Positions 41,916 to 64,000 of a stretch of DNA of 64,000 nucleotides are shown in pieces. Position 1 is the first letter of the stretch, and every line of letters starts with the position of its first letter. The translations under genes and the position numbers were made by a program. The notes under the pieces are model-generated. The model was not told where the DNA came from. It worked only from the letters and a program-made list of their open reading frames with translations, and searched no databases. The DNA is from Clostridia bacterium. GTDB lineage: Bacteria > Bacillota > Clostridia > Christensenellales > QALW01. The stretch lies in the NCBI GenBank assembly GCA_017502165.1, contig JAFVVO010000019.1, positions 63,415-127,414 on the forward strand, given 5' to 3'.

Positions 41916-42074
41916 TTATTCAAATATTTTTTTTAGCTTGCTTACGCACTTATTATAGCCTGATGAATGTACCTGGGCGGTGAGAATTTTCCATTCGCAG
42001 TCAGAACAGATGTACTTGCCCAAAATTTTAAGATTATCGTTTTTTTCCTTTTCGCAGATGCAGCACTTGCTCAT
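41916..42074 (-). CDS. csfB: Sigma-G inhibitor Gin/CsfB (52 aa, absent from the ORF track)
   Basis: MSKCCICEKEKNDNLKILGKYICSDCEWKILTAQVHSSGYNKCVSKLKKIFE: CxxC..ICxxCE..Y..KLK pattern; GAGGTG RBS. Confidence 0.8.
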   Translation of the reverse strand: MSKCCICEKEKNDNLKILGKYICSDCEWKILTAQVHSSGYNKCVSKLKKIFE

Positions 42075-42146
42075 TTTATCACCTCAAAATAATTATGAAT
42101 AACTTTTTTGTATTATATTCAATAAGATGATAAAAGGTTAAAAATA

Positions 42147-42171
42147 CCCCCGACAGAGCTTTTGTCGGGGG
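42147..42171 (-). terminator. Terminator of the rfbA-kinase unit
   Basis: CCCCCGACA/TGTCGGGGG stem followed by TATTTTT on the minus strand. Confidence 0.75.
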
Positions 42172-42176
42172 CGTCT

Positions 42177-42881
42177 TTATTCGGATTCTGACATTACCTT
42201 ATATGCAAGGCGGGCGGCATTCTCATCGGGCAGGCAACGAAGCCTGTAAAAAGGAACCGTTGCAATTAACTTATCCAATAGCGTAAGCAAGGCACCGGTT
42301 TTATCAGAGCCTGCTCTGCGAAGGGTTTGGGAAAGGATTAACTGCAAAATTTCTATTGGAGACGTAATTCGCTCAATAGAATTTTCCTTTGCGCGCTCAA
42401 TAAAGCAAATAGCCTTAAGGGGAACCTTGTGGTCTACGTTAAGATCCGTTTTACCGCTCCAGGGAGTACCGTAGGCGTAAAACTTACCGTTCTCAAGGCG
42501 AAGGGCAGGCTTATCGTCATTAAGGATAACAGCACCCTCAAAAGCTTTCAACCAAAGACTCGTGTGGGTGGATTTTCCCGTGCCCGAGTCAGCTGAAAAC
42601 AAGTAAGCGTTACCGTTATACTCTACGGCTGAAGCGTGCAAAACCAAACTGTTTCTCAAAAGAAGCTGTGAAGCAAAATCCTTGCCTAAGGTTACGTAAA
42701 CAAGGCTTTCCCAATTACCATCGGGGTGAGAAGCAAGAAATTTGTCGATGCGTTCCTGAGGGAAGCTTAAGGTAAAATCAGGAGAATCAGACGGGGAAGC
42801 TAAATACTTCTCCGCCTTCTTAAGCAGCTTTCCTCTGCAAAGCATATTTACCGTAAAATCGGCAATTTTATACGTTTTCAT
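42177..42881 (-). CDS. HPr-kinase-like P-loop kinase of the type found with PqqD/RRE genes
   Basis: LHASAV, SADSGTGKST, ILNDD, YGTPWSGK; lacks the N-terminal domain of canonical HprK. Confidence 0.82.
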   Translation of the reverse strand: MKTYKIADFTVNMLCRGKLLKKAEKYLASPSDSPDFTLSFPQERIDKFLASHPDGNWESLVYVTLGKDFASQLLLRNSLVLHASAVEYNGNAYLFSADSGTGKSTHTSLWLKAFEGAVILNDDKPALRLENGKFYAYGTPWSGKTDLNVDHKVPLKAICFIERAKENSIERITSPIEILQLILSQTLRRAGSDKTGALLTLLDKLIATVPFYRLRCLPDENAARLAYKVMSESE

Positions 42882-43774
42882 TAAAACTTTTTATTTCTTT
42901 CAGCAAGATTAAGAATATATTTACCGTAATCACTGGTCTTGGTTTCTTCACCTAAAGCCTTTAACTGCTCGGTTGTGATAAAGCCTCTGCGCCAAGCAAT
43001 TTCCTCAATACAGGAAATGTAGAAGCCCTGAAGGGACTGAACTGCCTGAACGTAGGAGGAGGCGGTAAGCATACCTTCGGGAGTGCCGGTGTCAAGCCAA
43101 GCCATACCTCTGCCCATTAAAATAACGTTCAACTCACGGCTCTCAAGGTAAGCGTTGTTAACTGCGGTGATTTCGATTTCGCCGCGGGCGGAGGGTTTAA
43201 CGTTTTTAGCAATTTCAATTACGCGGTTATCGTAGAAATAAAGACCGGGAACAGCAAAGTTGCTTTTGGGGAATTCGGGCTTTTCTTCAATGGAAATAAC
43301 CTTGTGGTTTTCGTCAAACTCTACTACACCGAAAGCGCGGGGATCAGATACGGGATAACCAAAGATGGTTGCACCGGTTTCAAGAGTTTTCGCGCGGAAC
43401 AGAAGCTGTGAGAAGTTTTGACCGTAGAATACGTTGTCACCTAAGATAAGGCAAACATTGTCCTCGCCAATAAACTCTTCACCGATAATAAATGCGTCAG
43501 CAAGGCCTCTGGGGGAGTCCTGAACGGCATAGGTGATAGAAATGCCTAAGCGTGAACCGTCACCTAAAAGACGGCGGTAAAGGGGAGTGTCTTCCGGAGT
43601 GGAAATAATAAGAATCTCATCAATTCCCGCAAGAAGTAAAACCGAAAGGGGATAATAGATAAGAGGTTTGTCGTAAATGGGTAATAACTGCTTTGAGATA
43701 ACCTTTGTCATGGGATAAAGGCGAGTGCCCTTACCGCCAGCAAGAATAATACCTTTTGTTTTTTTATTAGTCAT
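42881..43774 (-). CDS. rfbA: Glucose-1-phosphate thymidylyltransferase
   Basis: [48 protein letters not shown]. Confidence 0.95.
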
Positions 43775-43881
43775 TATGTTTTCCTCCGAGTTGAATGTGT
43801 TTTTTTATGCCTTTGCACAAAAATACGGGCTATAGGATCATCACCAAGAATTAAACCCGTCTGATTAAATTCTGTACAATA

Positions 43882-43910
43882 ATTATATCACTTAATGCCC
43901 GTTTTTGCAA
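43882..43910 (-). promoter_or_regulatory. Internal sigma-A promoter for rfbA-kinase
   Basis: TTGCAA-N17-TATAAT with TG extension. Confidence 0.6.
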
Positions 43911-43914
43911 TACG

Positions 43915-44175
43915 TTATTCAAAAATGTCCAATTCTTTTAATTTTGAAATAAAAGCGTCCGTGTCCTTTTTAGCAGTTTCAGCGTCAATATCATACTCGT
44001 GGGTCAACGCTTCTGCCACCGCATCTTTGTCTGCTCCGTCGGTGAGCAGGCTCCACATAAAAACACCGGTGTCGTTCAGCGTAAGCATTCCTTCAAAGCT
44101 TGAGGAAGCGCTTGATGAAATAATAACGTTGACGCCTGCAACCCGGCGCAAAACAAAGCTGTTCTTAATTTTCAT
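43915..44175 (-). CDS. Stand-alone PqqD-family RiPP recognition element (86 aa)
   Basis: MKIKNSFVLRRVAG..LNDTGVFMWSLL..EYDIDAETAKKDTDAFISKL; start ATG 44175 after GGGAG. Confidence 0.88.
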   Translation of the reverse strand: MKIKNSFVLRRVAGVNVIISSSASSSFEGMLTLNDTGVFMWSLLTDGADKDAVAEALTHEYDIDAETAKKDTDAFISKLKELDIFE

Positions 44176-44229
44176 AAAAACTCCCGCAAAGTTAAAAATA
44201 TATTGTGTTAAAAGTTTTTTAACAAGCAT

Positions 44230-44259
44230 ATTATACAGTATGCGCAATAGCTGTGTCAA
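44230..44259 (-). promoter_or_regulatory. Sigma-A promoter for the PqqD/RRE gene
   Basis: TTGACA-N18-TATAAT. Confidence 0.75.
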
Positions 44260-44328
44260 GTCTAAAAGCCGTTTTGATATCTTGTGAATTTTATATAAAA
44301 AATAAAAGATAAAAAATAAAAAAAACGA

Positions 44329-44357
44329 TTGACATACCATTTATGCCGTGCTATAAT
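44329..44357 (+). promoter_or_regulatory. Consensus sigma-A promoter for the small peptide gene
   Basis: TTGACA-N17-TATAAT, TG extension, A-tract UP element at 44297-44325. Confidence 0.85.
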
Positions 44358-44423
44358 ACGGGTGTATAAAAATAATGCTCTATTTATGTGCTTGAATAAA
44401 ATAGGAATAGGAGATTGATTACA

Positions 44424-44540
44424 ATGAAAAAGCAGTATACATCACCTGAAGTTGAAGTTTTAGAACTCAAGAATGCCAGCATTTTAACAGAAGTACTTGA
44501 AGAAGGCGGCTTTGACGACGTAACACCCGAAGAATCCTGA
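44424..44540 (+). CDS. Putative RiPP precursor peptide, 38 aa (absent from the ORF track)
   Basis: MKKQYTSPEVEVLELKNASILTEVLEEGGFDDVTPEES; AGGAG RBS; own promoter and terminator; YxxP leader next to an RRE. Confidence 0.8.
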   Translation: MKKQYTSPEVEVLELKNASILTEVLEEGGFDDVTPEES

Positions 44541-44586
44541 TAGGTCTATTTTAATATAGGCTTGATTTTCTATGCATTTAATTATT

Positions 44587-44610
44587 AAAATGAGCCGATA
44601 GGCTCATTTT
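44587..44610 (+). terminator. Terminator after the peptide gene
   Basis: AAAATGAGCC-GATA-GGCTCATTTT perfect hairpin. Confidence 0.8.
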
Positions 44611-44651
44611 GCATTTTTGGCAGATTTTATCAAATAATATCAAAATATATC

Positions 44652-63153: not shown

Positions 63154-64000
63154 ATGGACGTTTTATACTTTTTTGAGGGAATCCGTACCGATTTCGGCAA
63201 CGCGTTCTTTTCTGCCATTACCACCTTGGGAGAAGAAACAGCTTTTATCGTTATCGGACTGATTTTCCTTTGGTGCATTAACAAAAAACAAGGATATTAC
63301 CTTTTAAGCGTGGGAATTTTAGGTACTATAATCAACCAATTTTTGAAAATAGTGTTCTGTATTCCTCGTCCCTGGGTGCTCGATAAGAATTTTACCGTTG
63401 TTGAAGGCGCCAAGAAAATGGCTACAGGCTATTCCTTCCCAAGCGGACACACTCAGGTTGGAGTGGGGCTTTTTGCGGGCATCGGAATGTTCCTTAAAAA
63501 CAAATGGGCAAAAATCGGCTGCGTAATTTTGTGCGTGCTTGTGCCCGTTTCAAGAATGTATCTTGGCGTACATACGCCCCTTGATGTAGGGGTATCCATT
63601 ATCGTTGCTCTGGCGCTTTCGCTTTTACTGTATCCCGTTGCCCACAGTAAAAATGAAAATTGGCTTTCTATATTGTTCGGTGCGGTGGTACTGCTTCAGC
63701 TTGCGTCACTGTTATTTATGAATTTCTTTCCCTTCTCACAAGCCGTTGACCCTGCCGAAATAGCTCATAGCCGCGAAAACGCATCAAAAATGTTTGGCTG
63801 CGCGGTAGGCTTATTAACCTGCTACGAGCTTGACAGAAGAAAGCTCAAGTACTGCATCTCGGCTCCCGTTTGGGCGCAGATATTAAAGGTGGCGTTGGGC
63901 CTAATACCCATTTTAGCCATAAAGGCGCTTCTGAAGGAGCCTCTGTATGTACTGTTCGTTAATGAAAATGTTGCCGATTTCGTGCGGTATTTGTTAATTG
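63154..64000 (+). CDS. PAP2-family phosphatase (3' end outside window)
   Basis: Own translation: LKIVFCIPRP, SFPSGH, SRMYLGVH; AAGGAG RBS. Confidence 0.9.
   Translation, partial: MDVLYFFEGIRTDFGNAFFSAITTLGEETAFIVIGLIFLWCINKKQGYYLLSVGILGTIINQFLKIVFCIPRPWVLDKNFTVVEGAKKMATGYSFPSGHTQVGVGLFAGIGMFLKNKWAKIGCVILCVLVPVSRMYLGVHTPLDVGVSIIVALALSLLLYPVAHSKNENWLSILFGAVVLLQLASLLFMNFFPFSQAVDPAEIAHSRENASKMFGCAVGLLTCYELDRRKLKYCISAPVWAQILKVALGLIPILAIKALLKEPLYVLFVNENVADFVRYLLI

Follow-up and report, generated by a model that had tools for sequence, protein, structure and literature searches.

What is produced by a locus in which a very small open reading frame (ORF) lies divergent from genes for a PqqD-family protein, the glucose-1-phosphate thymidylyltransferase RfbA and a P-loop kinase? 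The locus (positions 42177–44610) is part of a stretch of 64,000 nucleotides, here called the window, that covers positions 63,415 to 127,414 (forward strand) of contig JAFVVO010000019.1 from the Clostridia bacterium assembly GCA_017502165.1. This source genome is a draft of 44 contigs and 1.83 Mb, 96.45% complete. An initial annotation had read the locus as a linear, cyclase-less system for a peptide made by the ribosome and modified after translation (RiPP), with a RiPP recognition element (RRE) and a peptide-modifying kinase. Our results indicate that it quite probably belongs to the Linear Polyphosphorylated Peptide (LPP) family of RiPPs, as a Clostridial member whose genes are physically split. 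The system as such is not new, since it belongs to a family published in May 2026 (PMC13381572); the novelty lies in the split Clostridial layout with two RREs and an embedded rfbA, and in a link between precursors and secreted proteins in related genomes.

The LPP family was described by Popov et al. (Nat Commun, May 2026; PMC13381572), and its main text gives as the core set a SipW-like (archaeal-type) signal peptidase (LppS), a discrete RRE (LppB), an HprK-like kinase (LppK), an NTP transferase (LppN) and an MsbA-like pump (LppD), with no cyclase. The precursors have 35–200 aa and the leader motif YxxPxVLxHQxIxFETxxS. When the Paenibacillus alginolyticus cluster lppA-K-B-S-D-N was placed in B. 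subtilis, mass spectrometry (MS) revealed a linear peptide cleaved after T−1 and bearing up to four phosphates on S3; LppS activity required LppB, and the kinase did not accept Thr as acceptor (PMC13381572). LppN was inactive in this host, and the authors suspect that a partner outside the cluster makes a rare substrate; according to them, the final product and its biological role are unknown (PMC13381572). Their survey concerned Bacilli (80 of 9173 genomes), where the clusters are located in capsule loci (PMC13381572). The words ‘Clostridia’, ‘rhamnose’ and ‘thymidylyltransferase’ are absent from the main text, and the supplements may list Clostridial members; a full-text literature search did not find the family name in other papers. 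For the window, the reading as a cyclase-less, RRE-dependent and kinase-bearing peptide system instead of an ordinary lasso cluster is supported, the MS result being that of the homologous LPP system of P. alginolyticus (PMC13381572).

The putative precursor gene, its recognition element and the putative kinase

All four genes were found where the initial annotation had placed them, and coordinates, family scans and transcription signals agree on a 38-aa ORF divergent from a pqqD(RRE)-rfbA-kinase operon, as follows:

44424–44540, + strand: putative LppA-like precursor peptide gene, the 38-aa ORF, with the sequence read by the initial annotation
44329–44357, + strand: promoter-like site of the peptide gene (TTGACA-17-TATAAT, TG before the −10 element, 12/12 matches)
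44586–44611, + strand: terminator-like hairpin 3′ of the peptide gene, from the signal scan
44230–44259, − strand: promoter-like site of the pqqD-rfbA-kinase operon (TTGACA-18-TATAAT, 12/12 matches)
43915–44175, − strand: discrete RRE, an LppB-like PqqD-family protein of 86 aa (PF05402, E 4.3e-16)
42881–43774, − strand: rfbA, glucose-1-phosphate thymidylyltransferase (TIGR01207, 461.2 bits; cut-off 360.65)
42177–42881, − strand: putative LppK-like, HprK-like P-loop peptide kinase of 234 aa, which retains the His and the GxGKST signature
42146–42172, − strand: terminator-like hairpin 3′ of the kinase gene, from the signal scan

The two promoter-like sites are perfect sigma-70-type sites arranged back to back in the 250-nt spacer between the peptide gene and pqqD. 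GGAG is present upstream of the peptide ATG, the pqqD start is an internal ATG of a longer open frame, and the kinase ATG and the rfbA stop overlap by one base. These signals fit a stand-alone small peptide gene and a three-gene pqqD-rfbA-kinase operon. A profile of related peptides found exactly one match in the source genome (E 4.5e-10); since this match coincides with a promoter, a ribosome-binding site (RBS) and a terminator, the peptide ORF is more than a chance frame. It had been called hidden, but the exact 38-aa protein is already in a public protein collection, unnamed, on 8 contigs, so that gene callers do find it; the peptide is uncharacterised rather than invisible.

The peptide itself resembles LPP precursors in a YxxPxV motif and in a Thr at the predicted cleavage site. 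Its leader carries Y5-T-S-P8-E-V10, an instance of the RRE-binding motif YxxPx[V/L/I] whose Pro was invariant across a 21-peptide alignment, and the related-peptide profile matched it with an E value of 2e-10. The Thr predicted to precede the cleavage site is T22, at Tyr+17 as in most relatives, and the predicted core would comprise 16 aa, acidic, beginning with E-V-L and ending with S38, its sole Ser. The related peptides have the leader consensus PE[IV]E[IV]..F..E.[IV]LT-x-S, different from the published one, and a T-x-S junction, with Ser at core +2, was found in 20 of 41 unique sequences. The initial annotation had taken the C-terminal Ser as the defining acceptor; as a family hallmark this residue was rejected, because only 2/41 related peptides end in Ser and the conserved Ser is that at core +2, a position without Ser in the window peptide. 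Given this absence, and given that the published kinase refuses Thr, phosphorylation here would have to use S38 or would not occur. The nearest relative (locus L035) has a similar peptide in the same place, likewise with one Ser near the C-terminus. Residues 2–16 gave a weak match to the paeninodin-family precursor model lasso_PadeA_fam (E 0.011), and the peptide profile found only chance-level matches among PDB sequences (E ≥ 0.3).

The best solved relative of the RRE was LppB (9x8z_B, E 1.5e-4), with a slight margin over the lasso RREs TfuB1 and TbiB1. In the alignment to 9x8z_B, LppB residues N33, Y60, D70 and F74 correspond to N34, Y61, D71 and F75 of the window RRE, and these four residues were invariant in 16 RRE sequences of the genus. 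N33 and D70 of LppB fix the Pro kink and the Tyr of the YxxP motif, and paeninodin-type RREs have Gly at the N33 position (PMC13381572). With its Asn and Asp and with no paeninodin-type Gly, the window RRE agrees with the LPP type.

The kinase-like protein gave no match in a local Pfam scan, and ScmC (E 1.7e-6) and HprK-related kinase A (E 1.4e-5) were the only NCBIfam models that it matched, with scores far below the cut-offs (27.6 versus 125 bits and 24.4 versus 200 bits). Both models come from the in-silico cassettes of Haft (SynChlorMet ScmC/ScmD and HprK-related kinase A; TIGR04249, TIGR04352), which likewise combine an HprK-related P-loop protein with a PqqD-family protein; their partners are reportedly radical SAM/SPASM proteins. 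The AlphaFold2 model of the kinase was confident (mean predicted local distance difference test, pLDDT, 92.2). The protein has many relatives: at least 7794 proteins at E 0.001 among 8000 candidates scored, and 9727 clusters of 50% identity at E 0.001, or 412 at E 1e-30. All 120 homologues listed carry the precomputed tag PF27840.1, and one among them is fused to a PqqD domain. Two genus genomes also have a second, shorter-matching kinase paralogue (L045, G008:C65; L046, G002:C102), with 43–44% identity over residues 63–232 and no PqqD match within 5 kb. Two contigs with kinase genes stand out among records otherwise from Bacillota by their labels, ‘uncultured planctomycete’ for L091 and ‘uncultured Bacteroides sp.’ for L122; these labels could reflect mis-binning or transfer.

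The dispersed parts of the proposed pathway

A pattern scan with one genome per species yielded at least 593 confirmed kinase loci among 600 candidate stretches. The best 80 of these loci, all from other genomes and nearly all of them in metagenome-assembled genomes (MAGs) of gut and rumen Clostridia, plus Ca. Formimonas, were analysed by clustering all their ORFs de novo and searching the resulting profiles within a 5-kb radius of the kinase. The kinase was accompanied by both a PqqD protein and a protein of about 150 aa at 41 loci, by PqqD without the ~150-aa protein at 19 and by the ~150-aa protein at 12, and it stood alone at 8; the next commonest neighbours were an ABC exporter (PF00664+PF00005) and NTP_transf_5 (PF14907). 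The ~150-aa protein by itself has no Pfam or NCBIfam match. However, its profile matched signal peptidase I (4me8, E 0.004) and the eukaryotic SEC11C (7p2q, E 0.019) with the SM-P, HR and GDN motifs aligned, Peptidase_S24 matched 6 of 13 members, and Ser, His and Asp are invariant in the family; judged by these motifs, it is a SipW/SEC11-like peptidase. Conserved peptides were indeed found together with homologues of the RRE and kinase genes, in favour of the initial annotation. Elsewhere in Clostridia, cassettes adjoin CpsB/CapC and SLH-domain genes, and such nearby cell-surface polysaccharide genes are a further point of likeness to the published family.

The corresponding parts are present elsewhere in the source genome (G000), in line with the in-trans partners that the initial annotation had proposed to look for, as an S24/S26-type peptidase on contig C12 and an NTP_transf_5 protein on contig C3:

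G000:C12:72704–73453 (= L158:1305–2054), − strand: second RRE (RRE2) fused to a SipW-like, putatively LppS-like peptidase, 249 aa (PF05402, E 1.2e-9)
G000:C3:11468–12619: putative LppN-like NTP_transf_5 protein (PF14907, E 1.2e-42)

The C12 gene is directly beside groEL, and its product keeps the catalytic Ser, His and Asp motifs, as would suit an LPP peptidase acting in trans. The C3 gene, of the type of the LPP NTP transferase, adjoins polysaccharide-type genes. Profile searches of the source genome gave exactly one copy each of the kinase, the peptidase, NTP_transf_5 and the precursor, and two RREs. RRE2 and the peptidase are adjacent separate genes in most relatives and fused in about five genomes.

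The absence of a lasso cyclase and of a B2 peptidase, noted earlier for the window, extends to the whole 96.45%-complete assembly: PF13471 had no match, and the sole PF00733 match (23 bits) is a GMP-synthase-type PP-loop protein. The cyclase search with PF00733 also covered five other cassette-bearing genomes. Two of them had matches only below 25 bits; in the complete genome behind locus L079 (G062, Ca. Formimonas) every match was separated from the cassette by over 1 Mb; the remaining two, both drafts, have matches whose positions relative to the cassettes were not mapped. No Asn_synthase was present among the 25 of 45 Pfam families listed for 26 large cassette neighbours, which alone is no proof. 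These results bear on the possibility that the window holds one half of an ordinary lasso cluster, with the cyclase and the B2 peptidase in unassembled sequence. A draft of 44 contigs leaves some room for this, and the leader resembles those of the paeninodin family; but the genome has no PF13471 match and no true PF00733 match, a cyclase is likewise missing from the family in other genomes, one of them complete, the leader peptidase is SipW-like and not B2, and the RRE has the LPP-type Asn instead of Gly. We consider a split lasso cluster very improbable.

The comparison with paeninodin- and pseudomycoidin-type systems, drawn from a review (PMC8498205) and from PMC7533575, also revealed shared features: the MKK-Y-x-x-P leader start, the acidic core, a discrete B1-type RRE, an HprK-like kinase working on the linear precursor and an NTP transferase that attaches hexose to the phosphate (PMC8498205). 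The window system differs from them in its lack of both an Asn-synthase-like cyclase and a transglutaminase-like B2 peptidase, in the Asn of its RRE where they have Gly, in YxxP instead of WxxP, and in a C-terminal Ser that is not conserved.

Taken as an LPP system, the parts suggest the following pathway. The 38-aa ORF would encode an LppA-like precursor, and the PqqD protein would act as the LppB-like discrete RRE that binds the YTSPEV segment of the leader. The 234-aa P-loop protein would be the LppK-like kinase that phosphorylates a Ser of the core. The RRE-peptidase fusion encoded on C12 may correspond to LppS and would remove the leader, most likely after T22, and the NTP_transf_5 protein encoded on C3 may, like LppN, add a further group to the phosphate. 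Because there is no macrolactam cyclase, the product would stay linear, as a short and very acidic peptide; rfbA, presumably co-transcribed with the RRE and kinase genes, might feed the LppN-like step. Gene content, homology, conserved motifs and co-occurrence within the genus are what the sequences show; that the chemistry known from P. alginolyticus also takes place on the window peptide, and on which Ser, we infer.

The likeness to that system extends over the discrete RRE with its Asn and Asp, the putative HprK-like kinase, the SipW/signal peptidase I-like protein with Ser, His and Asp, the NTP_transf_5-type transferase and the missing macrolactam cyclase. The layout is different. Here the host belongs to a lineage of gut Clostridia MAGs, whereas the published clusters are from Bacilli; at least three loci hold the genes that form a single operon there; there are two RREs, of which the first goes with the kinase and the second is either fused to the peptidase or next to it; an rfbA of housekeeping type lies inside the RRE-kinase operon; an exporter of the LppD type was not found; the window peptide is without a Ser near the start of its core; and in the relatives the precursors occur in multiple, dispersed copies and are linked to secreted-protein genes.

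The distribution of these parts was followed in 20 genomes of the genus besides the source genome. The kinase was present in 17 of them, and the same count was obtained for the precursor family (1–14 copies in each genome) and for RRE2 with the peptidase; NTP_transf_5 was present in 14. In the other three genomes (G009, G017 and G020, 94–98% complete) none of the four components was found. Kinase, peptide and peptidase therefore co-vary exactly within the genus; this joint gain and loss is a pattern, not a statistic.

Several observations weigh against the assignment to the LPP family. The co-occurrence counts suggest more support than they give, because the genomes compared are kin and thus not independent of one another. 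The kinase and the peptidase are likened to LppK and LppS by description and context, not by direct sequence alignment. An hhalign comparison of the kinase with the HPrK/P of the same genome aligned the signature only (27 columns, E 7e-4, probability 26%), and the kinase profile found no match among PDB sequences at E values up to 1. A recognisable precursor lies beside the enzymes at only 17 of the 80 distant loci and 5 of the 18 near ones, and the window peptide lacks the T-x-S junction. Two metatranscriptome runs yielded only short contigs, on rfbA, and no contig on the peptide gene, although such contigs cannot prove absence. Finally, the source genome has no cassette-type exporter, its best ABC exporter reaching 326 bits against at least 621 for the members; this negative concerns the cassette-exporter profile, and a generic exporter may serve.

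Some of these observations would also fit a decaying or repurposed copy, whose peptide has ceased to undergo LPP maturation and functions, for example, as a leader-only RRE decoy or as a regulator. The missing Ser at core +2, the single precursor where relatives have up to 14, the lack of a cassette-type exporter and the absence from the source genome of the secreted C-terminal-domain proteins described below all point in this direction. Nevertheless, every enzyme gene is intact and keeps its catalytic motifs, and the peptide gene has a consensus promoter, an RBS and a terminator. L035 keeps its similar peptide, with one Ser near the C-terminus, in the same place, and lasso-type HprK-like kinases are known to phosphorylate a C-terminal Ser (PMC8498205). 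A remnant is, in our judgement, improbable, and we continue to favour a split LPP system.

rfbA inside the RRE-kinase operon

The product of rfbA is the sole RmlA equivalog of the genome by TIGR01207, and rmlB is located on another contig (C5). The description of this RmlA as an orphan holds only in the sense that rmlB lies elsewhere. In the window, as at 17 of 18 loci of relatives, the gene lies between RRE and kinase, the exception being L039, where the RRE directly adjoins the kinase. At the locus of the sister genus (L044, the same as L069) the order is RRE, peptidase, rfbA, kinase. Across the relatives’ loci, identity was 81–93% for rfbA, 48–59% for the kinase and 37–60% for the RRE; this far higher conservation is the pattern of a housekeeping gene. 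The three genomes without the system retain rfbA at 88–90% identity among unrelated flanking genes, and beyond the clade rfbA was nearby in only 1 of 70 loci, five genes off. In a quick maximum-likelihood tree of 80 kinases, the 10 with rfbA between RRE and kinase formed one side of a branch (SH-aLRT 99–100). We read rfbA, from its conservation and distribution, as a housekeeping gene captured once into the operon, in an ancestor of the genus and its sister genus.

The alternative is that rfbA takes an active part in the pathway, with dTDP-glucose, or dTDP-rhamnose made through rmlBCD, being put on the phospho-Ser by the NTP_transf_5 protein or another transferase to give a phosphoglycopeptide linked to surface-glycan metabolism. 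This idea, which is that of the initial annotation, is compatible with the LPP assignment. It would account for the gene order kept at nearly all of the related loci and for the overlap of the rfbA stop with the kinase start, across which a 244-nt contig from an RNA library extends; it would also suit the inactivity of LppN in a heterologous host, where an outside partner is suspected, and the position of the Bacilli clusters in capsule loci (PMC13381572), as well as that of the Clostridia cassettes near CpsB/CapC and SLH-domain genes. Against it stand the housekeeping pattern of conservation of the only RmlA, the persistence of rfbA where the system is missing, L039 and the distant loci with their near-complete lack of rfbA, and a promoter-like site that separates pqqD from rfbA. 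On balance we regard a working role of rfbA as rather unlikely, and a supply role for the NTP transferase as possible but unsupported. The tie to nucleotide-sugar metabolism drawn by the initial annotation loses ground accordingly, for it rests on a gene order that arose once and on a gene that persists without the system; a role as carrier or tag for surface-glycan synthesis is speculation.

The close association with rfbA could also be taken to mean that PqqD and the kinase regulate RmlA or another protein, as an HPrK/P-like Ser kinase would, and that the peptide is unrelated. The operon is indeed tight, and HPrK/P itself is a protein kinase. Yet outside the clade the kinase/RRE pair occurs without rfbA, the peptide varies exactly with kinase and peptidase within the genus, and the homologous published kinase acts on a peptide (PMC13381572). 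We find this explanation hardly credible and retain the LPP kinase as the preferred reading.

Three further observations concern the operon. The promoter-like site between pqqD and rfbA (43882–43910, − strand; 10/12 matches, TG-extended) could allow expression of rfbA and the kinase gene without the RRE. The 244-nt contig, from a gut metatranscriptome, matches window positions 42728–42971 with 5 differences and spans the rfbA stop and the kinase start; it is a weak hint of rfbA-kinase co-transcription, as DNA carry-over or a related strain could also be its source. Directly downstream of the operon lies a Gin gene (sigma-G inhibitor, PF10764, E 4.1e-10; 41916–42074, − strand), syntenic in most relatives, whose presence marks the host as a spore-former.

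Precursors beside secreted proteins in related genomes

From 73 matches to the peptide profile, 20 were sampled (loci L138–L157, in genus genomes G006–G019). Sixteen of the 20 precursors lie beside the gene of a secreted protein that has 357–991 aa and a signal peptide, and these proteins have in common a C-terminal domain of about 270 aa; two more are cut by contig ends. In 15 of the 16 cases the secreted-protein gene ends just upstream of the peptide gene, and at the 12 junctions measured the gap was 11–18 nt in 11 and a 1-nt overlap in one. Each measured peptide gene has its own Shine-Dalgarno sequence, and the frames relative to the upstream gene vary. Readthrough or fusion of the peptide with the upstream protein was rejected because of this separate RBS and start and these differing frames.

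The C-terminal domain has no Pfam match. It was also found on proteins of 1093–1839 aa with GH3, PF13204/PF16586, LRR or PA14 modules, and its model shows two repeats of a beta-sandwich and a helical hairpin (pLDDT 90.8). No protein with this domain was found in the source genome. In other genera, very large proteins precede the precursor and the kinase (L077, L083, L096 and L107). At L107 (893–6118), a 1604-aa protein ends in ~16 residues that are similar to the core of a precursor encoded ~250 nt downstream, both being Gly/Trp/Glu-rich with a similar end motif, and at L091 the tails of two large proteins encoded upstream of the kinase are acidic and aromatic. These large proteins may carry LPP-like tails themselves.

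An admittedly bold proposal is that, in this lineage, LPP-type peptides are partner molecules of secreted proteins and not free antibiotics. One central machinery (RRE-RmlA-kinase, RRE-peptidase and NTP transferase) would mature all the dispersed precursors, each co-transcribed with a gene whose secreted product is carbohydrate-active or adhesin-like. The resulting phospho(glyco)peptide, acidic and with a dTDP-sugar derived from the embedded rfbA, would then be a cell-surface anchor, a ligand or an export/activation cofactor recognised by the two-repeat C-terminal domain. As a complete account we hold this to be improbable; if true, it would give the LPPs their first biological role.

For the window itself, what had appeared to be a new RiPP-like module turns out to be a member of a published family. 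The central idea of the initial annotation, a linear phosphopeptide system, is upheld; comparison did not confirm the details that it had based on the C-terminal Ser and on rfbA. The family reaches widely into gut and rumen Clostridia, with at least 593 loci that have close relatives of the kinase, and its pathway can operate with its genes scattered and gained or lost as a group. Within one genus, the precursors have multiplied and sit behind genes of secreted enzymes with a new C-terminal domain in common. Both this link to secreted proteins and the embedded RmlA are leads to the function of the phosphopeptide and to the needs of the silent NTP transferase.

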